From: Candidatus Omnitrophota bacterium
Lineage (GTDB): Bacteria; Omnitrophota; Gorgyraeia; Zapsychrales; Fredricksoniimonadaceae
Reading direction: 5' to 3'
DNA length: 64,000 nt
Assembly (NCBI GenBank): GCA_903901225.1
Contig: CAIUQE010000037.1
Coordinates: 106,580-170,579, forward strand
Positions within the stretch are counted from its first letter, which is position 1. Every line of letters starts with the position of its first letter. Shown piece after piece: positions 632-12,774 of the stretch. The notes under the pieces are model-generated. The model saw nothing but the letters and a program-made list of their open reading frames with translations. It did no database searches and was not told where the DNA came from. The position numbers were made by a program, and so were the translations under genes.

Positions 632-3418
632 TTATCGTTTCAGGAAATGGCTCAGGTATTGGCCGGTGTAAGACGCGGGCTGAAGGGAAAGTTGTTCCGG
701 TGTCCCGGCAAACATCAACCGCCCTCCCGCGCCGCCTCCTTCAGGGCCGAGGTCGATGACATGATCCGCGGATTTGACCACCTCAAGGTTGTGCTCGATA
801 ACAAGGACCGTATTGCCCTTGTCAACAAGCCGCTGGAGGACTGATAATAACTTTTCGACATCCGCGAAATGCAAGCCCGTCGTCGGCTCATCAAGGATGT
901 AAAAAGTGCGGCCTGTCGCCGGCTTGCAAAGCTCCGCCGCCAGCTTGACCCTCTGGGCCTCCCCACCGGAAAGAGTGGTCGCGGACTGGCCCAGTTTGAT
1001 GTAACCAAGTCCAACGTCATTCAATACCTCAAAAACACGCCGGGCACGGGGAATATTTCCAAAAAACTCAAGGGCATCGACAATGGACATGTCAAGGACA
1101 TCGCTGATATTACGGCCTTTATATTCAACCTGGAGGGTCTGCTCATTAAAACGACGTCCATGGCAGATCTCGCACTCCACATGGACATCCGGCAAAAAAT
1201 GCATTTCGATCTCCTTGATCCCGTCACCCTCGCACGCTTCACAGCGCCCCCCCTTAACATTAAAACTGAACCGCCCCGGCCCGTAACCGCGCAGCTTTGC
1301 CTCAGGCAACCTGGAAAAAAGCGTCCGTATGTCCGAAAAAACCCCCGTGTACGTGACCGGATTCGACCTGGGGGTCCGGCCGATAGGCGACTGGTCAACG
1401 ACAACCACCTTGTCAATGTGTTCGACCCCTTCGATCTTCTTGAAGGCCCCCGGCTTCTCGCGCGCGCCGTAGAGTTTTTGCGCCAGGACTTTGTGGAGCA
1501 CATCGTTGACCAGCGTTGATTTCCCGGATCCTGAGACCCCTGTGACACACGTGAACGTCCCGATCGGGAAATCCACGTCGATACCCTTCAAATTATGCTC
1601 GTTCACACCCTTCAAACTTATGAATTTTCCCTTAAAAGCCTTGCGGCGCTCCAGAGGCAAAGGGATCTTCAGGTCTCCGCTCAAATACCTGCCTGTCAAT
1701 GAGCCCTTGACCGACATGATCCCGGCCACAGGCCCCGCGTACATCACCTCACCGCCGAATTTCCCCGCGCCCGGGCCAAGATCGATCAGCCAGTCGGCAT
1801 TGCGGATCGTATCCTCATCATGCTCAACGACGATCAGCGTATTACCAAGGTCTCTCAAAGCATGCAAGCTCGCCAGAAGCCGTTCGTTATCTTTTTGATG
1901 CAGGCCAATGGATGGTTCATCAAGTACATACACCACGCCCACAAGGCCGGAACCCACCTGCGTGGCCAGGCGAATGCGCTCCGCTTCACCGCCGGAAAGG
2001 GTCGCGCTTCGGCGGTCAAGGGTCAAATAGTCCAGCCCGACATTAACGCAAAAATCCAGGCGCCGCGCGATCTCTTTCAGGACAGGTTCCGCAATGGCAA
2101 CCGCATCCCCCTGCAGTTGGAGCGTGGAAAAGAATTCTTTCGCCCCCTTGATGGAAAGTTTGACCACATCGGCAATATTTTTCCCGCCCACGAGGACCAT
2201 GAGCGAAGACTTTTTAAGCCGGTCTCCCCCGCAAAAAGGACATGGGGCTTCCGACATGAACCTGGATATCTCTTCTTTCAACCAGTCGCTGTCCGTCTCA
2301 CGAAAAAGCCTTTCCAGGTACCCTGTCACACCCTCAAACCGGCGGCCCCAGATAATGTCCTCCCCCCCGTACAAAATACGCCGTTTAAAATCTTTGGGGA
2401 GTTTGCTGTAGGGCAGGGTCACATCAATATCGTAAAGCCCTGCAAGTTCACGCATCACCGCGCGATAATACATCATGTACCCTCGCTGACCCTTGCGCCA
2501 GGGGACAATGGCGGCAACCCAGGGTTTTGAAGGATCCGCGACTAGAACGTCGATATCGATCTCCATCTTCGTCCCAATGCCGTTGCACTGCGGGCAGGCG
2601 CCATAAGGCGAATTGAACGAAAAAGTCCTCGGTTCAAGTTCCGGAAGGTCGATCCCCTCCTCCGGCACGGAATAACTTTCGCTCAAGACAATATCTTCAT
2701 CCCCGTCAGAAAAAGCGATCACAACGGATCCCTTGCCCACCTTGAGGGCTGTTTCTACTGAATCCGTCAAACGAAGCTTAATATCGGATTTGACGCTCAA
2801 ACGGTCAACCAAGATCTCTACAGAATGGACCTTGTAGCGGTCAAGCTTGATCTTTTCACTGGCATCGTATATTTTGCCATCAACGCGAAGGCGGGCAAAC
2901 CCGGCCTTGGCCACATCCTGGCCAATATGAGGGTAGGTCCCTTTCTTCCCTTTGACAAAAGGCGCGAGGACAAGCACTTTTGTGCCCACCGGCAAACGCA
3001 ATATCCGCTCGACCATTTCCTGGGCAGACTGCTTCTCCAGCTTCTGGCCTTTATAATAGGGAACCCCCACCCGGGCGAACAAAAGGCGCAGATAGTCATA
3101 GATCTCCGTCTGGGTCGCGACGGTGGATCGCGGGTTACGGCTGATGGTCTTCTGTTCGATGGAAATGGTGGGGCTCAAACCGTCGATGGATTCAACATCG
3201 GGCTTCTGCACTTGCCCCAGGAACTGGCGGGCGTAGGCCGAGAGGCTTTCAACGTAACGCCGCTGGCCTTCCGCGTAGATCGTATCGAACGCGAGCGATG
3301 ATTTTCCGGAACCGCTCAAGCCCGTCACAACGATGAAAGCATCCCGCGGCAGATCCAGCGAAATGTTCTTGAGATTATGCTCCCGCGCGTTCTTGATGAC
3401 AATATGGTTCAGCGACAT
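632..3418 (-). CDS. uvrA: Excinuclease ABC subunit A (UvrA)
   Basis: Supplied ORF 632..3508; two ABC ATPase modules with Walker [15 protein letters not shown] and [13 protein letters not shown], zinc-finger CxxC motifs, ~930 aa. Likely true start MSLNHIVIK (cat at 3416-3418); upstream 30 codons look like a spurious extension. Confidence 0.95.
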
Positions 3419-3597
3419 AAGATTTACGGCCCCATTACCCTTGTTCAAAGTGCGCGACAACCCGCGGGCGGGTAAAATACCAGATTCCGCAGGCCGCGAA
3501 CACCCCATCTATGGCCCAACGGCACAGCACGTTGATCCATGTGAACATTTCAAGGGATACCATTGACGTCAGCGTCCCGTGAAAAAAATGTTTCGCG

Positions 3598-3819
3598 CTA
3601 CAATAAAAAGATGAATATGAATGCCGCCCCTATCCCGCACGCAAGCCCGGTCATCCTTAACAAATACGATATGCCATAACGGATGAACAGCAAACTGTCG
3701 GGAACACCGGGATTGACCTCCTTGTAATTTGTAATATGTGGTATGTAATATATCTGCCCGACGGAAGTCAAGACAAGCGTGATCCCGAAAATTATGGCAC
3801 CCAAAGGACCCTTTCTCAC
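3598..3819 (-). CDS. small hydrophobic membrane protein, hypothetical
   Basis: 73 aa ORF with two predicted TM stretches (AIIFGITLVLTSVGQIYYI; LACGIGAAFIFIFLL); no recognisable family. Confidence 0.3.
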   Translation of the reverse strand: MRKGPLGAIIFGITLVLTSVGQIYYIPHITNYKEVNPGVPDSLLFIRYGISYLLRMTGLACGIGAAFIFIFLL

Positions 3820-3873
3820 CCGCGCCGCCTCCTGTTAATGGGCTTTCATGATCACCCTGCCCGGAATAGACAG

Positions 3874-3906
3874 CAACCCCTGCCGTCATACTGACGGCAG
3901 GGGTTG
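3874..3906 (-). terminator. perfect 15-bp GC-rich stem-loop downstream of the Lys-rich protein gene
   Basis: caacccctgccgtca-tac-tgacggcaggggttg; strong hairpin 24 nt past the stop of the 3930..4178 gene; lacks a clean U-tract, so intrinsic-terminator status is uncertain. Confidence 0.35.
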
Positions 3907-3929
3907 TGCCTTAGATCAAAAAAAGAAGA

Positions 3930-4178
3930 TCACTTCTTCTTTTTCTTTTTACCGCCCTTCACCATCGCGGCGCTGGAAATATCACCCTGCTTATCAATGA
4001 AGTAAAGGAAACCCTTTTCCTTCTTGATACCGACCTTGGCGACCTTCTTGGGCTTGCCGCCCTTCTTGTCACCACGGGCCATTGCCGCGCTTGAAACGTC
4101 GCCCTGTTTGTCAATGAAGTACAGGAAACCCTTTTCCTTCTTGACGCCCACCTTAGCAACCTTCTTGGCCATTCTCAT
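3930..4178 (-). CDS. Lysine-rich small protein composed of two tandem 39-aa repeats (KKVAKVG[VI]KKEKGFLYFIDKQGD[VI]SSAAM), poly-Lys C-terminus; candidate nucleic-acid-binding/nucleoid protein
   Basis: 82 aa; RBS gaaaggggg 8 nt upstream of ATG; protein = MRMAKKVAKVGVKKEKGFLYFIDKQGDVSSAAMARGDKKGGKPKKVAKVGIKKEKGFLYFIDKQGDISSAAMVKGGKKKKKK; basic, beta-rich unit reminiscent of small SH3-like DNA binders (inference only). Confidence 0.55.
   Translation of the reverse strand: MRMAKKVAKVGVKKEKGFLYFIDKQGDVSSAAMARGDKKGGKPKKVAKVGIKKEKGFLYFIDKQGDISSAAMVKGGKKKKKK
3960..4168. repeat. In-frame 117-nt tandem duplication (2 copies) inside the Lys-rich protein gene
   Basis: 3960-4051 vs 4077-4168 align with only a few substitutions (period 117 nt = 39 codons). 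Confidence 0.85.
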
Positions 4179-4311
4179 TCACCCCCTTTCACATGATATC
4201 CGGTTTAATGTACGTTTTCTTAATGGTCGACGGGATGCCCGCCATCCCCGATAACACTCACCAGGTCACTGCCCGGCGGAGCAATAAAGTTTCACCCGAC
4301 ATGAATACCCA

Positions 4312-5139
4312 CTAGGTCCCGATCTTGATATTTGTCGCCATGCTCTGAAGCGCGCGAATGCCTGACAAGACCGCAAGATAGCTGGTCTTGGGATTATCCG
4401 GACAAACAGTGTTTTCGGTCTTGGTCGTGATACGCCCGAATTCACCCTCGAGAACAACTTCATGGGTGTTGCGAATGACCTCCGGCGAAGCAATGATGCG
4501 CACGCGAAGTTTGACACCCGGACCAGCGGCCAGCGCGACGGTCGCCGCGACATTGATGTTTTGCGGAAAAAGGCGGACAGCATCCTTGACGTCACCCTCG
4601 AAAAGAACAACGTCACGGGCAATATCCTTAAGATGTATGCCTTTTTCCCTAATATAAGGGTTGTCACTGAATCCGGCGGGAGGCTTGCGGGTCGTCAATG
4701 TGATGGAGGTGATACCAAGAAGGGCCGCCGCCTTGATCGCGTCAAGCCCGGCCACGGCGCCCGAAGGAAGGATCAGCTGGCCTTTGGAACGGCGCGCCAG
4801 GTCAAAAAGGGTGCCGTCGCTCAGAAGTCTTCCGATGCTCATGGCCATGACACTTTTGCCCGCGTTAAGGGCCGCGCGGACAATATCGACAGTGGCTTGC
4901 GTGTTGACCGCCTCAATGACGATATCGGAACGGCGGATGAGGTCATCTATATCTTTGGCCGCGCCGCCACGGACATTGAGCCGCTCGGCAAGTGCCCCGA
5001 CCTTGGCCTGGTCGATATCGTAGAGGGCAACCACCTCAAACGCGCCTTTGAGCTCTTTCATCACACTGCGCGCGATCCTTGAGCCGATCGCCCCGCAACC
5101 GATGATCCCCAGTTTTAATTTCGTATTTCTAGATGTCAT
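4312..5139 (-). CDS. nadX: L-aspartate dehydrogenase (NadX family)
   Basis: 275 aa; N-terminal Rossmann GIIGCGAIGSRIA, aspartate dehydrogenase-like core; size typical of NadX. Confidence 0.75.
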   Translation of the reverse strand: MTSRNTKLKLGIIGCGAIGSRIARSVMKELKGAFEVVALYDIDQAKVGALAERLNVRGGAAKDIDDLIRRSDIVIEAVNTQATVDIVRAALNAGKSVMAMSIGRLLSDGTLFDLARRSKGQLILPSGAVAGLDAIKAAALLGITSITLTTRKPPAGFSDNPYIREKGIHLKDIARDVVLFEGDVKDAVRLFPQNINVAATVALAAGPGVKLRVRIIASPEVIRNTHEVVLEGEFGRITTKTENTVCPDNPKTSYLAVLSGIRALQSMATNIKIGT

Positions 5140-5984
5140 TACGTGGTGACTATAATGTTATCTATCAGCCTGGTGGTGCCGAACCTGGCCGCAACCGCTA
5201 TCAACACCCGCCCTTCTATCCGACGGGCAACACGAAGATCATGAAGCGTTACGCACGAAACATATTCAATGCTAGCACCGGCACCGACGGAAATCAACTT
5301 TTTTATTGCGGAATTTATTCTTGCCGTCCGACGCTCACCGGCGATGACCATTTTCCTGGCATGGCAAAGGGCCCTGTAGATCGACGGAGCCGCGGCCCTA
5401 TCACCGGCGGAAAGGTATGTGTTGCGGGAGCTCATGGCCAGGCCGTCTTTTTCGCGGACCGTCGGGCAGACTTTCAGCCCCGTCGCGAGGTCAAGGTCTT
5501 TCATCATGCGCCGGATGATCTCGACCTGCTGGGCATCTTTCTGCCCCAGGTACATCACATCCGGCTGGACGATATTCAATAATTTGGCCACCACGGTGGC
5601 AACCCCGCTGAAATGGCCGGGCCGCGACGCCCCGCAAAGGCCATCCCCGATCTTCTTCACGTCGATATGCGTCAGAAACCCCGCGGGGTACATTTCATCC
5701 ACGGACGGGACGAAAAATAGCTCGACCCCGGCCGCGGATGCCATCTTCCTGTCGCGGTCAATGTCACGCGGATACCTTCCAAGATCTTCTGCCGGACCGA
5801 ATTGGATAGGATTCACGAACAAACTGACCACAGTGGCATGATGGTCCTTCACGGAGCGCTCCATCAATGACACATGGCCCGCGTGAAAATACCCCATCGT
5901 CGGGACAAAACCGATCGTCCTGCCGCGCGCGCGCAACCGGACCAATTCATGCCTGAGAGCCTTGATCGTTCTCACCAGTTTCAT
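5139..5984 (-). CDS. panC: Pantoate--beta-alanine ligase (pantothenate synthetase)
   Basis: 281 aa; PTMGYFHAGHVSL HIGH-type motif, conserved MSSRNTYL and LNIVQPDVMYLGQKDAQQ segments. Confidence 0.93.
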   Translation of the reverse strand: MKLVRTIKALRHELVRLRARGRTIGFVPTMGYFHAGHVSLMERSVKDHHATVVSLFVNPIQFGPAEDLGRYPRDIDRDRKMASAAGVELFFVPSVDEMYPAGFLTHIDVKKIGDGLCGASRPGHFSGVATVVAKLLNIVQPDVMYLGQKDAQQVEIIRRMMKDLDLATGLKVCPTVREKDGLAMSSRNTYLSAGDRAAAPSIYRALCHARKMVIAGERRTARINSAIKKLISVGAGASIEYVSCVTLHDLRVARRIEGRVLIAVAARFGTTRLIDNIIVTT

Positions 5985-5994
5985 CGCGACTCCT

Positions 5995-6396
5995 TCAATA
6001 TCCTCTTACTTCACGCAACGGGGCCATAACGAACTCCCTCTCCTTCATCCTTGGATGAGGGATACAAAGTTCCGGGATTTCAAGCGAGACACCCTCATAA
6101 AGGAGGATATCGATATCAATGGTCCGCGGGCCATCCTTAACAGCGCGAACCCTGCCAAGATCTGACTCAACCTGTTGGATCACTTTCAAAAGCTCCTGCG
6201 GGCCAAGCAACGTTTCAGCTCGAAGCACGGCATTAAGAAAAAGCCCCTGGGGAGGTCCTCCGACAGGGGCAGTTTCAATGATCGTCGATAATTTAAGCTC
6301 GCTGATGCCGTATCCCGACAAAAAACGCACGGCATCATGGATGTTCTGTTCACGGTCACCAAGGTTCGATCCTAAACCAAGATAAATGACGGGCAA
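5995..6396 (-). CDS. folK: 6-hydroxymethyl-7,8-dihydropterin pyrophosphokinase (HPPK)
   Basis: 133 aa; IYLGLGSNLGDR ... GPRTIDIDILLY ... IPHPRM signature of FolK. Confidence 0.9.
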   Translation of the reverse strand: MPVIYLGLGSNLGDREQNIHDAVRFLSGYGISELKLSTIIETAPVGGPPQGLFLNAVLRAETLLGPQELLKVIQQVESDLGRVRAVKDGPRTIDIDILLYEGVSLEIPELCIPHPRMKEREFVMAPLREVRGY

Positions 6397-6411
6397 CAGC
6401 CCCCCCGGTTC

Positions 6412-7581
6412 TTAGGCCAATACTTTGCTCATCCGCTGGACCGCCTCATGGATGCGCTCGACGGGTACCGTGAGGGCCATGCGCACATACCCTTCACCGC
6501 ACTTGCCGAAACCGACTCCGGGCGTCACAACGATATCCGCCTGATCCAGGAAAGCTTTCGCGCAGGCCATCGAATCAGGAAATTTCGACGGTATTTTGGC
6601 CCAGACATAGTAGGCCCCTTTGGGCGGGTCGATCTTCCAGCCCAACGAACGGCAACCATTGATCAAGGCGTCCCGGCGCTCCTGGTAACAGGTCCTCATA
6701 TCCTCAATTTCAGCGGTATCCATCTGAAGCGCGGCAATGCCCGCGTGCTGGATGGCATTGAAAACCCCTGAATCCACATTGGACTTCACTTTCGCCAATG
6801 CCGCCACAAGCTGAGGATTACCGCAGGCCCAGCCCAACCGCCAGCCTGTCATGAAATACGTCTTGGAGAATGAATGGAATTCAATGGCGATATCTTTGGC
6901 CCCCGGGATCTCAAGGATGCTCGAAGGCTTGAGCCCGTCGAAATAAACTTCCGAATAGGCAAGATCTGAAACAATGATGATATTTTTTTGGGTGCACACC
7001 CGGACCAGTTCGGTATAAAACTCTTTGGTGGCCACGGCAGCCGTCGGATTGTTCGGGTAACAAACAATGATGGCCTTCGGGTCCTTGGATGCTTCGATAT
7101 CGGTTATCTTGGGAAGAAAATCATTCGACGCCTTGAGCGGCAAATACTGGATCTTCCCGCCGGCGAACGCAACCGCCGCCTGGTAAGCGGGATACGCGGG
7201 ATCACCCAGCAAAACCTTGTCGCCGGGATTGATCACCGCCAGAGGAAAGTGAGCGAGGCCTTCTTTGGAACCAATGAGCGGATAAACTTCACTCGCCGGA
7301 TCAAGCGGGACATTAAAACGCCGCAAAAACCATCGGGCGATCTCAACCCGTAATTGCGGCACGCCCGCGTCGAACGGATAATGATGGTTAGCCCCGTCAT
7401 CAACAGCCTTTTTCATCGCCTCAACGATCGGCTTATGCGTGACCTGGTCCGGATCACCGATCCCCAGGCTGATCACATCGCGGCCTTCCGCGATAGCCGC
7501 CCGTCGGGCTTTGTCAATTTCCACGAATAAATACGGAGGCAACTGTTTGAGACGCTCGGAAACCTCAAAATTTAAAGGCAT
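6412..7581 (-). CDS. dapL: LL-diaminopimelate aminotransferase (DapL-type class I aminotransferase)
   Basis: 389 aa; PLP-lysine motif SFSKTYFMTGWRLG; embedded at the end of the dapB-dapA-dapF-lysA run with no dapD/dapC/dapE present. Confidence 0.8.
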   Translation of the reverse strand: MPLNFEVSERLKQLPPYLFVEIDKARRAAIAEGRDVISLGIGDPDQVTHKPIVEAMKKAVDDGANHHYPFDAGVPQLRVEIARWFLRRFNVPLDPASEVYPLIGSKEGLAHFPLAVINPGDKVLLGDPAYPAYQAAVAFAGGKIQYLPLKASNDFLPKITDIEASKDPKAIIVCYPNNPTAAVATKEFYTELVRVCTQKNIIIVSDLAYSEVYFDGLKPSSILEIPGAKDIAIEFHSFSKTYFMTGWRLGWACGNPQLVAALAKVKSNVDSGVFNAIQHAGIAALQMDTAEIEDMRTCYQERRDALINGCRSLGWKIDPPKGAYYVWAKIPSKFPDSMACAKAFLDQADIVVTPGVGFGKCGEGYVRMALTVPVERIHEAVQRMSKVLA

Positions 7582-7588
7582 AAAACTC

Positions 7589-8305
7589 CTATATCAAACC
7601 CAGCACTTGCTGCATGTTGAATAATCCCTTATCCTTCTTTTTCAGGAATTTTGCGGCGACAAGGGCTCCCGCGACGAACATGTCACGGTCCTTGGCATTA
7701 TGGGAGATCTCGATGGTGTCGACCGGTCCTTCAAAAACCACCTTGTGGTACCCGACAACCTCCCCCTCCCGCAGGGACTCAATATCCGTTATCTTCTTCC
7801 CGGTCACACCTTCAACGACCTCGGCCATGGTCTTTGCCGTACCCGAAGGCGCGTCTTTTTTGTGCACATGATGGGTCTCGGTAATACCGACATCATACCC
7901 TTTAAGGACCGTCGCCATCTGTTTCAGGAGGCCAAAAACCAGGTTGACGCCCACCGACATATTGGTCGACTGGACGATCGCGATCTTCCGCGACGCCTTG
8001 GTGATCAATGAACGCTGTTCTTCAGAGAAACCCGTCGTTCCTATAACCGCCCGCACATTATGCTTCAAACAGGCCTTGAGCGCTTCGATAGACGGCCCCG
8101 GCAGTGTAAAATCGATCAGGACATCCGCGCCTTTGATGGCATTGATATCCCGCGACACCTTGACCCCTAACAATTGGGCCGGAACATCCGCGCGGTCGGG
8201 ACTTTCGATCAGCGCCGTGATCTTGAACGACTTGTCCCTTGAAGCAAGCAGGGCAATGCGCTGACCCATCCGTCCCTGGCAACCGGTGATCGCTAGTTTC
8301 ATCAT
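7589..8305 (-). CDS. dapB: 4-hydroxy-tetrahydrodipicolinate reductase
   Basis: 238 aa; N-terminal MMKLAITGCQGRMGQ Rossmann and conserved ETHHVHKKDAPSGTA segment typical of DapB. Confidence 0.92.
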   Translation of the reverse strand: MMKLAITGCQGRMGQRIALLASRDKSFKITALIESPDRADVPAQLLGVKVSRDINAIKGADVLIDFTLPGPSIEALKACLKHNVRAVIGTTGFSEEQRSLITKASRKIAIVQSTNMSVGVNLVFGLLKQMATVLKGYDVGITETHHVHKKDAPSGTAKTMAEVVEGVTGKKITDIESLREGEVVGYHKVVFEGPVDTIEISHNAKDRDMFVAGALVAAKFLKKKDKGLFNMQQVLGLI

Positions 8306-9189
8306 TCCGCCTTCTCGATAAGGTCAAATCCGACCAGAACTTTCTTCAGTTTTACAAGATTCTCAGGTTCAAGATCGCACAAGGGAAGCCTGACCTTCGG
8401 CGAACAAAGCCCCATCAGGCCACACGCTGTCTTGACAGGCGCGGGATTGGTCTCCAGGAACAGCGCCTTGATGATGGGCATAAGCTTGGCCTGTTTTTCT
8501 TCGGCCTCTTTCACTTTTCCCTTGAGCATCAGGTTCACGACTTCCGCCACCTCTTTGGGCATGATGTTAGCCAGGACAGAAATAACACCGGTCCCGCCGA
8601 GCTTCATGATCGGGATCGTCAAGGCATCATCACCGGAAAGGACATCAAAATCCTTGCCGCAAGCGGCTTTCACCGCCTTGGCCTGGTCGATATTACCCGA
8701 GGCTTCTTTCACGCCAACGATATTTTTGCAGTCCTTGGCCAGTTTCTTGACAGTTTCCGTTTCAATATTGCGGGCGCAACGGCCTTCAATGTTGTAAAGG
8801 ATAATGGGGATCTTGACGCTGTCAGCGACTGCCTTGAAATGAAGGTACAGTCCCTTCTGGGTCGGCTTGTTGTAATACGGCGTCACCACAAGCGCCGCGT
8901 CGACGCCGGATTCCTCCGCGTGCCTGATGAGGCGCACGGCTTCGGCCGTTGAATTCGACCCGGTCCCCGCGATGACCGGGACACGGTGGCGCACGGCATC
9001 CACGGTGATCTCAACGACCTTGTCGTGCTCTTCATGGGACAAAGTCGGCGACTCCCCCGTCGTACCGCACGGGACAATGCCTTTGGTGCCACTCTTGATC
9101 TGCCGCTCAACAAGCTCCGCGAGCTTCCATTCATCAACCCCGTGTTCCGTGAAAGGCGTTACCAGCGCGACAATGGATCCTTTGAACAT
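8302..9189 (-). CDS. dapA: 4-hydroxy-tetrahydrodipicolinate synthase
   Basis: 295 aa; GSIVALVTPF, GTTGESPTLS, active-site Lys region VGVKEASG. Confidence 0.93.
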   Translation of the reverse strand: MFKGSIVALVTPFTEHGVDEWKLAELVERQIKSGTKGIVPCGTTGESPTLSHEEHDKVVEITVDAVRHRVPVIAGTGSNSTAEAVRLIRHAEESGVDAALVVTPYYNKPTQKGLYLHFKAVADSVKIPIILYNIEGRCARNIETETVKKLAKDCKNIVGVKEASGNIDQAKAVKAACGKDFDVLSGDDALTIPIMKLGGTGVISVLANIMPKEVAEVVNLMLKGKVKEAEEKQAKLMPIIKALFLETNPAPVKTACGLMGLCSPKVRLPLCDLEPENLVKLKKVLVGFDLIEKAE

Positions 9190-9204
9190 TTTTTTCTCCT
9201 GTTG

Positions 9205-10041
9205 CTAAAGATAATACTCGCCTTTGCAAATGAGCTTCCCGCTCCCTTTCAACCAGACATTCGTCATCACCGGACGGTCCTTATCCACCACATCAAGGTC
9301 GAACGTCACATCCAGGACCTCTCCGCTTTTGGTCGCTACCCGCATCGCCGCGCCTTTTTGAGGCGTCAACTTTCCAGTGGAATGAAGATACCCGATAAGC
9401 GCTGAGGCGACACTGCCCGTGCCGCAGGCCAGCGTTTCAGCCTCGACACCGCGCTCATACGTGCGCACCGCGACAACACCCTCCCTGACCTTCTCTACAA
9501 AATTGACATTCGTCCCCTTGGGGGCGAACAGCGAATGCTGACGGATCAGACGGCCAAGTCCGTCCACATCCATCTCCTGAAGGCCCTGCACAAAAACGAC
9601 CACATGCGGCACGCCGGTATTGATAAAATGCCCCGTGAGCTTATGCCCGGCGGCCTTGATCTCAACTTCAGGACGATAATCCGCGGGATCGCTGAGCCTG
9701 ACAGCGGCAATATCCCCATGGACACTGGCCTGCAGGGTCCCCGCCTTGGTCTCGACCGTAAAAATTTCAGGAACAACCGCAAACTTGTTCGCCACGTAAA
9801 CAGCGAGGCAGCGGGCGCCGTTACCGCACATCTCCGCTTCAGACCCGTCAGCGTTAAATATACGCATGCGATGGTCGCACACGGTAGAGCTGCCAAGAAC
9901 GATCACGCCATCCGCGCCGATGCCCATATGCCGGTCACAGGCTTTCCGCGCAAGAACGGGATAATCAAGCTGGGGATCGTGGTCAATGACCACAAAATCA
10001 TTGCCCGCTCCCTGCATCTTTTGGAAAAGGATCTTCTTCAT
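9205..10041 (-). CDS. dapF: Diaminopimelate epimerase
   Basis: 278 aa; KMQGAGNDFVVID and two catalytic Cys motifs (MCGNGARC; ACGTGSVA). Confidence 0.92.
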   Translation of the reverse strand: MKKILFQKMQGAGNDFVVIDHDPQLDYPVLARKACDRHMGIGADGVIVLGSSTVCDHRMRIFNADGSEAEMCGNGARCLAVYVANKFAVVPEIFTVETKAGTLQASVHGDIAAVRLSDPADYRPEVEIKAAGHKLTGHFINTGVPHVVVFVQGLQEMDVDGLGRLIRQHSLFAPKGTNVNFVEKVREGVVAVRTYERGVEAETLACGTGSVASALIGYLHSTGKLTPQKGAAMRVATKSGEVLDVTFDLDVVDKDRPVMTNVWLKGSGKLICKGEYYL

Positions 10042-10123
10042 AAGAAGGAATTATACACAAATCCGACGAAAAAACCAATGGGTCAGAAAATAAAAGATGC
10101 CTGCCCGGAATGGCCGCAGCGCT

Positions 10124-11401
10124 TCATTTGAGGAAAGCCGGTATATGGGCACCCTTCACAAGGTCCCTGAATGTCTCTCTTGCCTGCACAACGGCCCACC
10201 GGTCGCCCTTGACCATCACTTCCGAAGCCCGGGGACGGACATTATAATTGCTGGCCATCGAATAGCCATAGGCGCCCGCGGACAGCAAGGCCAGGCATTT
10301 CCCGTCGGCAATATCAGGAAGTTTGCGGTCATGGGCAAAAACATCCCCGCTTTCACAAATAGGGCCGACCACATCACAAACGATCTTACGGGCCGCGGAA
10401 CGTTCAAGCGGGATGATCTCATGATGCGCCCCGTACATAGAGGGGCGCACAAGGTCATTCATCCCCCCGTCGACGATCATGAATTTCTTGACACCATTAT
10501 CTTTGGTGTAAAGTTTTCGCGTCACGAATATCCCGGCATTGCCAACGATAAAACGGCCCGGCTCCATGATAAGGCGCAACGCGCGGCCCTTGAGCAGCGG
10601 GAGCACCCTGTTCGCGAATTCCTTGGCCGTCTGGGGTTTTTCATCGCTGTAAATGATGCCCAGTCCGCCGCCGATATCAAAATACGTGACGCGCACGCCT
10701 TCACGGGCCAGGCCGTCAATGAAAGCCAGGGCCCTGCGTATCGCTTTCAAAAAAGGCGCCCCCTCGGTGATCTGGGACCCGATATGGATATGGACGCCAT
10801 TGATCAAAAGGTGCTTATATTTCTTCTGGCCAAGGAATATGCCCCTCGCCGTCGACAAGTCAATGCCGAATTTCTTCTTGAGGCTTCCCGTATTGATCTT
10901 GTCATGCGTGGGCGCTTGCACATCGGGATTGATCCGCAATGCCACCTGGACGGTCTTTTTCATACTGCCGGCGATGCGTTCGATGTTCTCTAGTTCCGGG
11001 CTTGATTCAACATTAAAAAGCAGTATCCCGGCTTTGATGGCATCCGCGATCTCAGCGTCGGTCTTGCCCACCGAAGCATAAACGATCTTCCTGACATCCG
11101 CCCCGACCAGCCGGGCCTTGCGCAATTCCCCGCCGGAAACAATATCGAAACCAGCCCCCGCGCTCACCAGGGCCTTGAGGACCGCCAGATTGCTGTTCGC
11201 CTTCATGGCAAAGCAAATGAGCGGATCGACCTCGTCGAAAGCGGCCTTGATCTTGTTAAAATGATCAACCAGTGTCTTATGGCTGTAGATATATGCCGGT
11301 GTGCCTGTGGTCTTGACGATGGAGGACACCTTCACGCCTTCGCAAAACAGTTCCCCGGCTTTGTAATGAAAATCATGGATCGGGTGGGGTGATCTTGTCA
11401 T
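10124..11401 (-). CDS. lysA: Diaminopimelate decarboxylase
   Basis: ORF 10124..11419; PLP-fold decarboxylase motifs (FAMKAN, EPGRFIVGNAG, CESGD); likely start MTRSPHP with ATG at 11399-11401 forming an ATGA overlap with the argH stop. Confidence 0.92.
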   Translation of the reverse strand: MTRSPHPIHDFHYKAGELFCEGVKVSSIVKTTGTPAYIYSHKTLVDHFNKIKAAFDEVDPLICFAMKANSNLAVLKALVSAGAGFDIVSGGELRKARLVGADVRKIVYASVGKTDAEIADAIKAGILLFNVESSPELENIERIAGSMKKTVQVALRINPDVQAPTHDKINTGSLKKKFGIDLSTARGIFLGQKKYKHLLINGVHIHIGSQITEGAPFLKAIRRALAFIDGLAREGVRVTYFDIGGGLGIIYSDEKPQTAKEFANRVLPLLKGRALRLIMEPGRFIVGNAGIFVTRKLYTKDNGVKKFMIVDGGMNDLVRPSMYGAHHEIIPLERSAARKIVCDVVGPICESGDVFAHDRKLPDIADGKCLALLSAGAYGYSMASNYNVRPRASEVMVKGDRWAVVQARETFRDLVKGAHIPAFLK

Positions 11402-12774
11402 TTCAGGCGCTTTTTCCACTTGTTGATCTGGGCTTTCACCATGTCGGGATTCGTGGAACCGAGGGATCGCTTGATCCTGACGGACATCTCGGGAGTCAGG
11501 AGGTTCTTCACGTCTTCTTCGAAATGCATGGAATAACGCTTCAACTGGGCGACATTCATGTCGGAGATCTTACGCCCGTGGTCCAGGCATTCCCTGACCA
11601 TGGCCCCGATCGTGTCATGGGCGTCACGGTAAGAAACGCCTTTCTTGACAAGATAGTCGAGGATGTCGACCGAAAAGAAATACTCCCCGGTGATCTTCCC
11701 CTTAATGACATCCTTCTTGACCTTGATGCCGTCAAAGACCTGGGCCATGATCTCCAGCATGTCTTCCATCGTCTCAAGGGCGTCAAAAAGAGCCGGCTTA
11801 TCCATCTGCATATCCCGGTTATAGCTGAGTGGCAACCCTTTCATGAGGACCAGAAGTTCCATAAGGCGGCCCGGGAATTTGGACGCGGTGCCGCGCACAA
11901 GCTCCAGCACGTCGGGATTCTTCTTGTGCGGCATGATGGACGAGCCCGTGCACACCGTATCCGCCAGTGCAATAAAATCAAATTCGCTGGTGACCCACAG
12001 GATAAGGTCTTCACAGACCCGCGTCAGATGCATCCCCGTGATCGCGATGGCCGCCATGATCTCAATGATGAAATCCCGGTCCGCGACCGCGTCGATGCTA
12101 TTGGCCGCGGTGGTCAAAAATCCAAGCTTCTTTGTCACATAATCGCGATCCGTCGGCAATGACGTCCCGGAAAACGCGCAGGCGCCGAGCGTGTTGACAC
12201 TCGTGCGCGCGCGGGCATCCTCAAACCGGCCCTTGTCGCGTTCCAGCATCTCGACATACGCCAGCATCTGATGGGACATCAGGACGACCTGCGCCGATTG
12301 CAGATGCGTGTAACCCGGTATGATAACGTCCTGGTTCTTGTCAGCGAACGTGACCAGCGCGATCTGCACCCCCTCGATGAGGGCCAGGATATTTTCCAGG
12401 TGATCCAGGCAATAAAGCCGGACATCGGTCACCACCTGGTCATTGCGCGAACGTGCGGTGTGAAGCTTGTCCGCGGGCTGGCCGATCAGCTTCTTCAATT
12501 TTATCTGGATATCGGTGTGGACGTCCTCGGAGGCAGGATCGAACACATAAGTCCCGCCCTCAATGCTCTTGGTCAGGGCCTTAAGGCCCGCCACAAGGGC
12601 GCTCGCGTCTTTCCTGGGAATGATCCCCTGTTCACCAAGCATCTGGGCATGCGCTGTCCCGGCGATACAATCATACAAAGCAAGCTTGTGGTCATAGGAA
12701 ATACTGTATGTGAACTTCTGGGAAGATTTACTTAAACTTCCCGCAAAGCGTGAACCCCATAATCGTGTGGCCAT
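11398..12774 (-). CDS. argH: Argininosuccinate lyase
   Basis: Fumarate-lyase signature GSSIMPHKKNPD; true start MATRLWGSRF (cat at 12772-12774); the supplied 542-aa ORF carries an 84-codon N-terminal extension overlapping argG. Confidence 0.93.
   Translation of the reverse strand: MATRLWGSRFAGSLSKSSQKFTYSISYDHKLALYDCIAGTAHAQMLGEQGIIPRKDASALVAGLKALTKSIEGGTYVFDPASEDVHTDIQIKLKKLIGQPADKLHTARSRNDQVVTDVRLYCLDHLENILALIEGVQIALVTFADKNQDVIIPGYTHLQSAQVVLMSHQMLAYVEMLERDKGRFEDARARTSVNTLGACAFSGTSLPTDRDYVTKKLGFLTTAANSIDAVADRDFIIEIMAAIAITGMHLTRVCEDLILWVTSEFDFIALADTVCTGSSIMPHKKNPDVLELVRGTASKFPGRLMELLVLMKGLPLSYNRDMQMDKPALFDALETMEDMLEIMAQVFDGIKVKKDVIKGKITGEYFFSVDILDYLVKKGVSYRDAHDTIGAMVRECLDHGRKISDMNVAQLKRYSMHFEEDVKNLLTPEMSVRIKRSLGSTNPDMVKAQINKWKKRLK

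Follow-up and report, generated by a model that had tools for sequence, protein, structure and literature searches.

A lysine-rich two-unit protein of Omnitrophota belongs to a large cross-domain family of predicted all-beta proteins and is a candidate non-specific nucleic-acid binder

The 7-kDa chromatin proteins of the Crenarchaeota, Sso7d/Sac7d (the Sul7d family, PF02294) and Cren7 (PF11520), fold as five-stranded SH3-like barrels, with a C-terminal helix in Sul7d. DNA is also bound, and condensed electrostatically, by lysine/alanine-rich tails of the kind found in the H1-like proteins Chlamydia Hc1, mycobacterial HupB and AlgP, where function resides mainly in the low-complexity tract or the tract is appended to an HU fold, and the swapped-hairpin domains of AbrB, MazE and SpoVT are small, (mostly) beta DNA-binding modules built of two equivalent halves that come from a homodimer or from duplication. 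A further class of small beta module, the choline- and cell-wall-binding repeat (CW_binding_1, PF01473), forms long solenoid arrays of ~20-residue units in secreted, choline- or glucan-binding proteins of the cell surface. Here we describe a lysine-rich protein of 80 amino acids, built from two similar units, that is encoded on the minus strand of a 64,000-nucleotide stretch of a Candidatus Omnitrophota genome (contig CAIUQE010000037.1, positions 106,580 to 170,579; this whole stretch is referred to as the window, and its first letter is position 1). It belongs to a large, unnamed and uncharacterised family that is found in bacteria and archaea, and it probably binds nucleic acid, be it DNA or RNA, without sequence specificity.

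With Sul7d and Cren7 the protein shares small size (7-9 kDa), a high lysine content, beta-rich character, a cytoplasmic location and a highly conserved stand-alone gene, and if, as presumed, it binds the DNA backbone non-specifically, its mode of action would be like theirs; however, its model has six strands in two three-strand units and no helix, and the taxonomic range of the family is completely different. As with the H1-like proteins, many family members end in KKAxKK-type tails, although here the tail sits on a conserved folded beta domain that has no known relative, and the window protein itself carries a tail of only six lysines. The two-halves build of AbrB, MazE and SpoVT is paralleled by the single-unit and tandem forms of the family, but there is no sequence match to these proteins and no AbrB or MazE structure is found among the Foldseek matches. 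The hairpin pattern G-x-(W/L)-Y-(Y/F)-hydrophobic-(D/N)-x-x-G-x-(M/V/I) is held in common with the choline-binding and glucan-binding repeats, a likeness that is weighed below.

The gene lies within an 82-codon open reading frame (ORF) at 3930-4178 on the minus strand, whose translation is identical to the one quoted in an earlier, sequence-only reading of this DNA. All counts of loci given below (synteny, neighbouring genes and tails; loci are denoted by L-numbers) refer to the best 80 of at least 555 stretches that were confirmed when GTDB species representatives were scanned with an alignment of the unit. Because the homologues begin with MAKK or MAEK and the first ATG of the ORF is not conserved, we place the true start at the second ATG (Met3, position 4172), so that the 82-codon ORF exists as had been reported while the protein itself would have 80 residues. 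A Shine-Dalgarno (SD) site is conserved 5-8 nucleotides before this second ATG in 11 orthologous loci, and the element (GGAGGTG or GGGGGTGA) is shared by the orthologous loci of bacteria and archaea, a near-consensus SD having been kept across lineages. The 80-residue protein has a mass of 8.7 kDa, an isoelectric point (pI) of 10.3, 24 lysines and a net charge of +18. No hydrophobic signal sequence is present in its N-terminus, MAKKVAKVG, as read directly from the sequence, and since there is no signal peptide the protein is taken to be cytoplasmic.

Codon usage in the 80 codons of the gene is skewed, with AAG at 21 of the 24 lysines (60% in bulk genes, p = 0.0035) and GGG at none of the 11 glycines (33% in bulk genes, p = 0.012), and the bias is stronger than in the window's ribosomal genes uS9 and uL13. 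This suggests high expression, the conserved near-consensus SD and the codon bias serving together as proxies for the abundance of the protein. Downstream of the stop codon is a stable hairpin (minimum free energy -41.1 kcal/mol when an 86-nucleotide stretch was folded; z = -5.85; none of 200 shuffles as stable), which is likely to be a terminator, though its T-tail is weak (CTGTCTATTC). The lysine-rich ORF, the two units, the lysine tail, the ribosome-binding site and the hairpin that had been picked out from the sequence are all real features. An Rfam scan of 3400-4700 gave no credible RNA family.

The two units are encoded by direct repeats at 3962-4051 and 4079-4168, which are spaced by 117 nucleotides (39 codons). 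This pair was established by a direct repeat search and a codon-by-codon comparison; with just two copies present, Tandem Repeats Finder reported no repeat at 3800-4300. Each unit encodes KKVAKVG(V/I)KKEKGFLYFIDKQGD(V/I)SSAAM, and the protein terminates in GGKKKKKK. The DNA of the units is 84% identical across 90 nucleotides without a gap, and 27 of the 29 core residues are the same, a similarity that is far beyond chance. At the level of codons the copies are less alike, as 14 of the 29 core codons differ, 12 of them synonymously and two by a Val/Ile exchange. When unit 1 was compared with unit 2 by the Nei-Gojobori method, the proportion of synonymous differences (pS) was 0.69, synonymous divergence (dS) ~1.84 and non-synonymous divergence (dN) 0.029, giving dN/dS ~0.016, and it can be seen that synonymous sites between the units are saturated. 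The low dN with a saturated dS indicates that the duplication is old and that both copies have been held by strong purifying selection. Likewise, in 119 of 119 close homologues the first unit resembles first units of other species more closely than it does the second unit beside it (mean identity 81% between first units and 75% within one protein), which rules out a recent duplication and strong homogenisation. The sequence-only reading had described an exact or nearly identical duplication, recent or homogenised, of two 117-nucleotide units at 3960-4051 and 4077-4168; the exactness is not borne out, and the inference that the duplication is recent or homogenised is wrong. Among deep representatives of the family, the similarity between the two units of a protein (0.50) slightly exceeds that between same-position units across proteins (0.44-0.47), a pattern which suggests that duplication occurred more than once or that the two halves have co-evolved.

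Ser28 (4086-4088) and Ser67 (3969-3971) occupy the same position of the two units. This position is serine in both units of the window protein and of a few relatives, cysteine in both units of most close Omnitrophota homologues (GDVSCA/GDISCA) and arginine in the wider family (GDVSRA), and the two units tend to change together at it.

In order to obtain a structural model, AlphaFold was first supplied with a shallow alignment of Omnitrophota sequences only, and the result was discarded (predicted local distance difference test score, pLDDT, 48.7). With 68 diverse sequences a confident model was returned, with pLDDT 89.2 and a predicted template modelling score (pTM) of 0.72. It contains three strands per unit (Table 1), no helix and a disordered tail, and within each unit a short strand (KVAKV) is followed by a basic loop (G-I/V-K-K-E-x-G) and then by a beta-hairpin (YLYF-IDKxGD-VSxA), the unit closing with an AxM motif whose Met is conserved. 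The two units are predicted to pack into one compact six-stranded all-beta domain. A Foldseek search with the model found no neighbour in the PDB (best expectation value, E, 0.55; TM ~0.25) and none in BFVD, so that the predicted fold is one without a known neighbour. Sso7d, Sac7d and Cren7 were absent from the matches, and the resemblance to SH3-like 7-kDa DNA binders that had earlier been offered as a guess finds no support in the model, confident as it is.

Sequence searches likewise gave no match for the window protein or its divergent relatives in Pfam, NCBIfam, PHROG, PADLOC or the PDB. In Pfam no family matched the window protein at E up to 10, and five divergent two-unit members did not match Sul7d or Cren7 at E up to 1; HU/IHF (PF00216), Alba and the archaeal histones were not matched in Pfam, NCBIfam or the PDB, and the model is all-beta; and PF01473 was absent from all Pfam scans of the window protein and its relatives. 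No ribosomal protein model of Pfam or NCBIfam matched the window protein and no ribosomal chain was among the PDB sequence matches, one relative alone showing a Ribosomal_S27 match far below threshold (E = 0.32), and the family gene is not in a ribosomal operon. The sub-threshold noise for the unit consisted of DotY, BaiB, DUF5050, phrog_9154 and Cmr7. A search of the literature on the motif, on nucleoid proteins of Omnitrophota and DPANN archaea and on Omnitrophota proteomics found nothing relevant. With nearly all source names reading 'hypothetical protein', the novelty originally proposed for the protein is upheld, and membership in a ribosomal or other characterised family was not found in Pfam, NCBIfam or the PDB.

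The family is nonetheless a large one. A collection of 5.8 billion proteins yielded 2365 close matches, of which the best 120 are 73-105 residues long and 76-96% identical, and the source names attached to the matches read only 'hypothetical protein', from Candidatus Omnitrophota. A profile of the single unit retrieved 952 cluster representatives (50% identity clustering) at E of 1e-3 or better. The 39-residue period is kept in 233 of 264 two-unit proteins, and some members have four, six or seven units. The two-unit layout recurs in more than 2000 homologues, which excludes the sequencing or assembly artefact that had been raised as a possible cause of the repeat. The loci are from Omnitrophota, Elusimicrobiota/Endomicrobia, Woesearchaeota/Nanoarchaeota, Myxococcota, Nitrospirota, Auribacterota and others. 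Identity is ~80% across a phylum and 74-83% overall between bacteria and archaea, an Endomicrobia query matching proteins of Woesearchaeota and Thermoplasmatota at 74-77%. The archaeal contigs carry genes for OapC, HerA, an Ssb-like OB protein, diphthamide synthase, SBDS and aIF-1A, and are on this evidence truly archaeal. A mainly viral origin of the family was considered and rejected, as no GenBank phage was matched by tblastn and only seven family loci were present among 2.9 million IMG/VR contigs.

Single-unit homologues in related genomes, the search for which had been suggested at the outset, were found at the orthologous locus itself. In the Omnitrophota loci L040, L041, L047 and L077, ORFs of 42-49 residues with one unit and an Arg/Lys tail lie between the aspartate dehydrogenase gene and uvrA. 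Stand-alone single units are also present in archaea (L038, L044 and L066) and in a further bacterium (L064), and the archaeal protein of L044 is identical to that of Omnitrophota L041 at 35 of 42 positions. At the other extreme are members with long C-terminal tails rich in lysine, alanine and proline (L010, L023, L026, L036, L039, L045, L060, L062, L071, L075 and L078), in which up to ~70 residues are made up of KKAVKK/KKPKKK-type repeats in the manner of histone H1.

The unit is also found within larger proteins, in some of them in 4-7 copies; multi-unit or fused examples include P0121 (886 residues), P0152 (354 residues) and P0185 (468 residues). An HNH endonuclease is fused to it in P0151 and P0244 (E = 1e-13 and 3e-14), the candidate defence family PDC-S18 in P0182, and zinc ribbons in P0185, P0168, P0170, P0192 and others, with some of the zinc-ribbon partners also having GAF and RING domains. 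A weak match of helix-turn-helix (HTH) type (Terminase_5) is seen in P0141, and the partner in P0247 is a HIT nucleotide hydrolase. In the membrane-anchored forms P0191 (OmpA), P0214 (DoxX), P0160 and P0246 the units are on the predicted cytoplasmic side. By eye, P0121 appears to carry its seven units after an N-terminal region and a single membrane segment. A C-terminus of P0222 that looked HNH-like by eye was without Pfam support and is not claimed.

The charge of these proteins, their H1-like tails, the fusions to HNH, HTH and zinc-ribbon domains and the DNA-repair genes nearby lead us to favour non-specific nucleic-acid binding. Among the small representatives 84% have a pI above 9.5 and the median net charge is +12, the family median pI being 10.1, and Lys/Arg is conserved inside the unit at columns 3, 6, 11, 12, 22, 28, 30 and 33. 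The window protein, with the mass and charge given above, is small and strongly basic, as are proteins of the nucleoid-associated class. As to the neighbours, the gene order aspartate dehydrogenase, family gene, uvrA is present in L001, L003, L005 and ~25 species-level Omnitrophota genomes, and in 8 of the ~22 archaeal loci the family gene is flanked by herA, a Mre11-type phosphoesterase gene and the origin-associated genes oapABC. The small HTH_17 gene that precedes it in six loci (see below) and, as signs of expression, the conserved SD and the codon bias point the same way. Spread between domains is also easier for a non-specific DNA binder, examples being HU in Thermoplasma and histones in bacteria, than for a protein that co-evolves with a partner.

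We suggest that the single-unit forms would act as homodimers, of which the tandem form would be the fused pseudo-dimer. The structured core would display the conserved Lys and Arg residues and, together with the flexible lysine-rich N-terminus, linker and tail, might grip the phosphate backbone without regard to sequence. Double-stranded DNA would be the most likely target of what may be an abundant architectural, nucleoid-associated protein, and in the fusions the module could provide a DNA anchor for HNH nucleases, HTH proteins and membrane proteins. For DNA, in particular, as the ligand we see roughly even chances. The best overall explanation, a basic all-beta protein that binds nucleic acid non-specifically, most likely double-stranded DNA, and is nucleoid-associated, is one that we hold with about equal measures of confidence and reserve.

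Several observations weigh against this explanation. The protein has no homology to any protein of known function, the functional arguments are all indirect, and the basic surface is deduced from sequence alone. Seven of 106 small representatives are acidic or neutral, so that the fold is not always a polycation, and the OmpA, HIT, DoxX and GAF fusion partners are not nucleic-acid domains. Synteny in Omnitrophota may reflect shared ancestry rather than function. No sigma-70-like promoter was found in the 133 nucleotides upstream of the gene, which may therefore be co-transcribed with the aspartate dehydrogenase gene, and 80 codons are a small sample from which to judge codon bias. Finally, oapABC, the archaeal neighbours, are now associated with vesicles that carry RNA rather than with replication: in Haloferax, OapA (ArvA) and the GTPase operon of which it is part are required for the formation of RNA-loaded extracellular vesicles (PMC10927574).

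This last point bears on the possibility that RNA and not DNA is bound, the protein being ribosome-associated, an RNA chaperone or, in archaea, a factor of the arvABC (oapABC) RNA-vesicle system. The charge, the conservation, the strong SD and the codon bias would also suit an RNA binder, one fusion partner is a HIT nucleotide hydrolase, and the family gene directly precedes oapA-oapB-oapC, in the same orientation, in L022, L026, L067 and L068. Adjacency to oapABC is, however, limited to 6 of the ~22 archaeal loci; several of the oapABC loci also have herA and the Mre11-type gene within 4 kb, and these genes, together with uvrA and the HNH fusions, point to DNA. No ribosomal or RNA-binding family of Pfam or NCBIfam was matched, and the bacterial-archaeal identity would be hard to square with a lineage-specific rRNA partner. 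We consider an RNA-binding role unlikely, if still worth serious attention.

Equally improbable in our estimation is an adaptor made of beta-hairpin repeats, which would bind a protein, a peptide, a small molecule or an anionic membrane in the manner of choline-binding or YWTD repeats and in which the lysine tracts would merely solubilise or localise the protein. The only weak similarities that were detected are to such repeats. The choline-binding family provides the best, though insignificant, PDB profile match (3hia; whole-sequence E = 0.011, best-stretch E = 1.9), followed by LRP6 YWTD blades (E = 0.016) and glucansucrase glucan-binding repeats (E = 1.4), with DUF5050, SGL and strictosidine synthase as sub-threshold matches in Pfam, and the pattern G-x-[LW]-Y-[FY]-[IVL]-D-x-x-G-x-[VIM] is common to them. 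The fusions to membrane proteins, OmpA, DoxX and GAF and the minority of acidic members would also be accommodated. None of these matches, however, is significant or above a Pfam threshold, there are two copies at a spacing of 39 residues rather than long arrays at one of ~20, and the polycationic window protein, being cytoplasmic, differs from proteins that bind choline or glucan outside the cell. Forms with transmembrane segments would need no separate membrane-binding module, and conserved basic residues are found within the folded unit, not in the tails alone. We conclude that the faint likeness to beta-hairpin repeats is one of shared motif pattern and not of membership.

It is very improbable that the protein is an overlooked member of a known small DNA-binding family (Sso7d/Sac7d, Cren7, HU or Alba) or a known ribosomal protein. 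Its size, lysine content and beta-rich character are indeed like those of Sso7d and Cren7, but neither single sequences nor profiles matched these families in Pfam, NCBIfam or the PDB even at E = 10, none of them is in the Foldseek PDB list for the confident six-stranded, helix-free model, and the range is Omnitrophota, Elusimicrobiota and DPANN archaea, not Crenarchaeota. That the ORF arose by chance, or the repeat through faulty assembly, is a view for which nothing speaks beyond the small size and the overlapping ORFs in other frames, and it can for practical purposes be set aside given thousands of homologues of the same architecture, the dN/dS between the units and the conservation of SD, start codon and synteny. 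By these same measures the gene is a real, expressed-looking one under strong purifying selection.

The positions of the features discussed are collected in Table 1.

Table 1. Features of the two-unit gene and of related loci. Positions are those of the window unless a locus is named; residues follow the 80-residue numbering.
Feature	Position	Strand	Remarks
Coding sequence of the 80-residue protein	3930..4172	-	Start is Met3 of the 82-codon ORF; stop codon 3930-3932
Upstream in-frame ATG, mechanical ORF start	4176..4178	-	Probably not the start; directly after SD, no spacer; ATC in L001
Shine-Dalgarno GGGGGTGA	4179..4186	-	Ends 6 nucleotides before the ATG at 4172, which it serves
Unit 1 (AKKVAKVGVKKEKGFLYFIDKQGDVSSAAMARG)	4071..4169	-	Predicted strands at residues 3-6, 16-20, 26-30
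Basic Gly/Lys linker DKKGGK between units	4053..4070	-	KKGG core invariant or nearly so in close homologues
Unit 2 (PKKVAKVGIKKEKGFLYFIDKQGDISSAAMVKG)	3954..4052	-	Predicted strands at residues 42-45, 55-59, 65-69
C-terminal Gly-Lys tail GKKKKKK	3933..3953	-	pLDDT 61 for last residue block; presumably disordered
Hairpin, perfect 15-bp stem (10 G-C pairs), 3-nucleotide loop	3874..3906	-	Likely terminator; 24 nucleotides past the stop codon
Conserved dehydrogenase-to-dap block	4312-11419	-	Compared with L001, L003; dapF beyond dapA in window and L003
Single-unit genes, Omnitrophota orthologous slot	L040 3995-4135; L041 944-1072; L047 3995-4138; L077 3998-4147		
Single-unit genes, other	L044 3998-4135; L064 3995-4138		L044 archaeal; L064 another bacterium
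Long-tailed members	L010 3878-4294; L062 3872-4315; L026 370-804; L023 3944-4492; L071 843-1202; others		
Woesearchaeota-type oapA(arvA)-oapB-oapC loci	L022 3824-5637; L026 370-2347; L067 686-5949; L068 1332-5657; also L010, L050, L065, L080		

Among Omnitrophota genomes the wider gene order, which is conserved, runs from aspartate dehydrogenase through panC, folK, an aminotransferase gene, dapB and dapA to the family gene, and continues with uvrA, a gene for a TPR protein and MotA/ExbB. The same order is carried by several contigs whose label reads 'uncultured Planctomycetales/Planctomycetia' and which are probably Omnitrophota. At six loci (L036, L039, L043, L049, L058 and L071), mostly from Endomicrobia/Elusimicrobiota, a small gene of the HTH_17 family (excisionase-type helix-turn-helix, E = 4.5e-16) is one or two positions upstream on the same strand. 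In the window, a 73-residue ORF with two hydrophobic segments (3598-3819, minus strand) lies between the likely terminator of the family gene and uvrA; it has no Pfam match, and two sigma-70-like promoter matches fall inside it, one of them at its 5' end. The mechanical uvrA ORF (632-3508, minus strand) begins ~30 codons upstream of the conserved N-terminus, and the real start is probably an internal Met near 3418. The lysine-rich gene is overlapped in other frames or on the other strand by ORFs of 50-76 residues at 3959-4159 (minus), 4024-4254 (plus) and 3848-4000 (plus), which its repetitive, AAG-rich sequence throws up as by-products. Such spurious ORFs displaced the true gene when genes were called naively by longest ORF, and the analysis of neighbours made use of gene calls in which the family gene was fixed in place.

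The Omnitrophota, Elusimicrobiota and DPANN archaea are abundant and for the most part have not been brought into culture, their cells are often ultra-small or host-dependent, and to our knowledge almost nothing is known of how their genomes are organised. A central role is likely for a protein that is this conserved, this basic and, it appears, so well expressed. It is conceivable, although we advance it only tentatively and with some doubt, that the family is a new one of chromatin (nucleoid) proteins, with a new all-beta two-unit fold, which would be a major organiser of DNA in these three groups, would have spread between domains recently enough to leave 74-83% identity, and would have both its homodimeric single-unit and its fused tandem stages still extant. 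If DNA binding is true, a new structural class would be added to the short list of prokaryotic chromatin proteins, and the passage of a chromatin component from one domain to the other would be clearly exemplified. A compact nucleic-acid-binding beta module of 4-9 kDa could also serve as a fusion tag, as Sso7d has done. The genes for single-unit proteins of 42-49 residues and tandem proteins of 80 residues at one chromosomal position would, moreover, offer a direct view of a symmetric domain arising from a homodimer.
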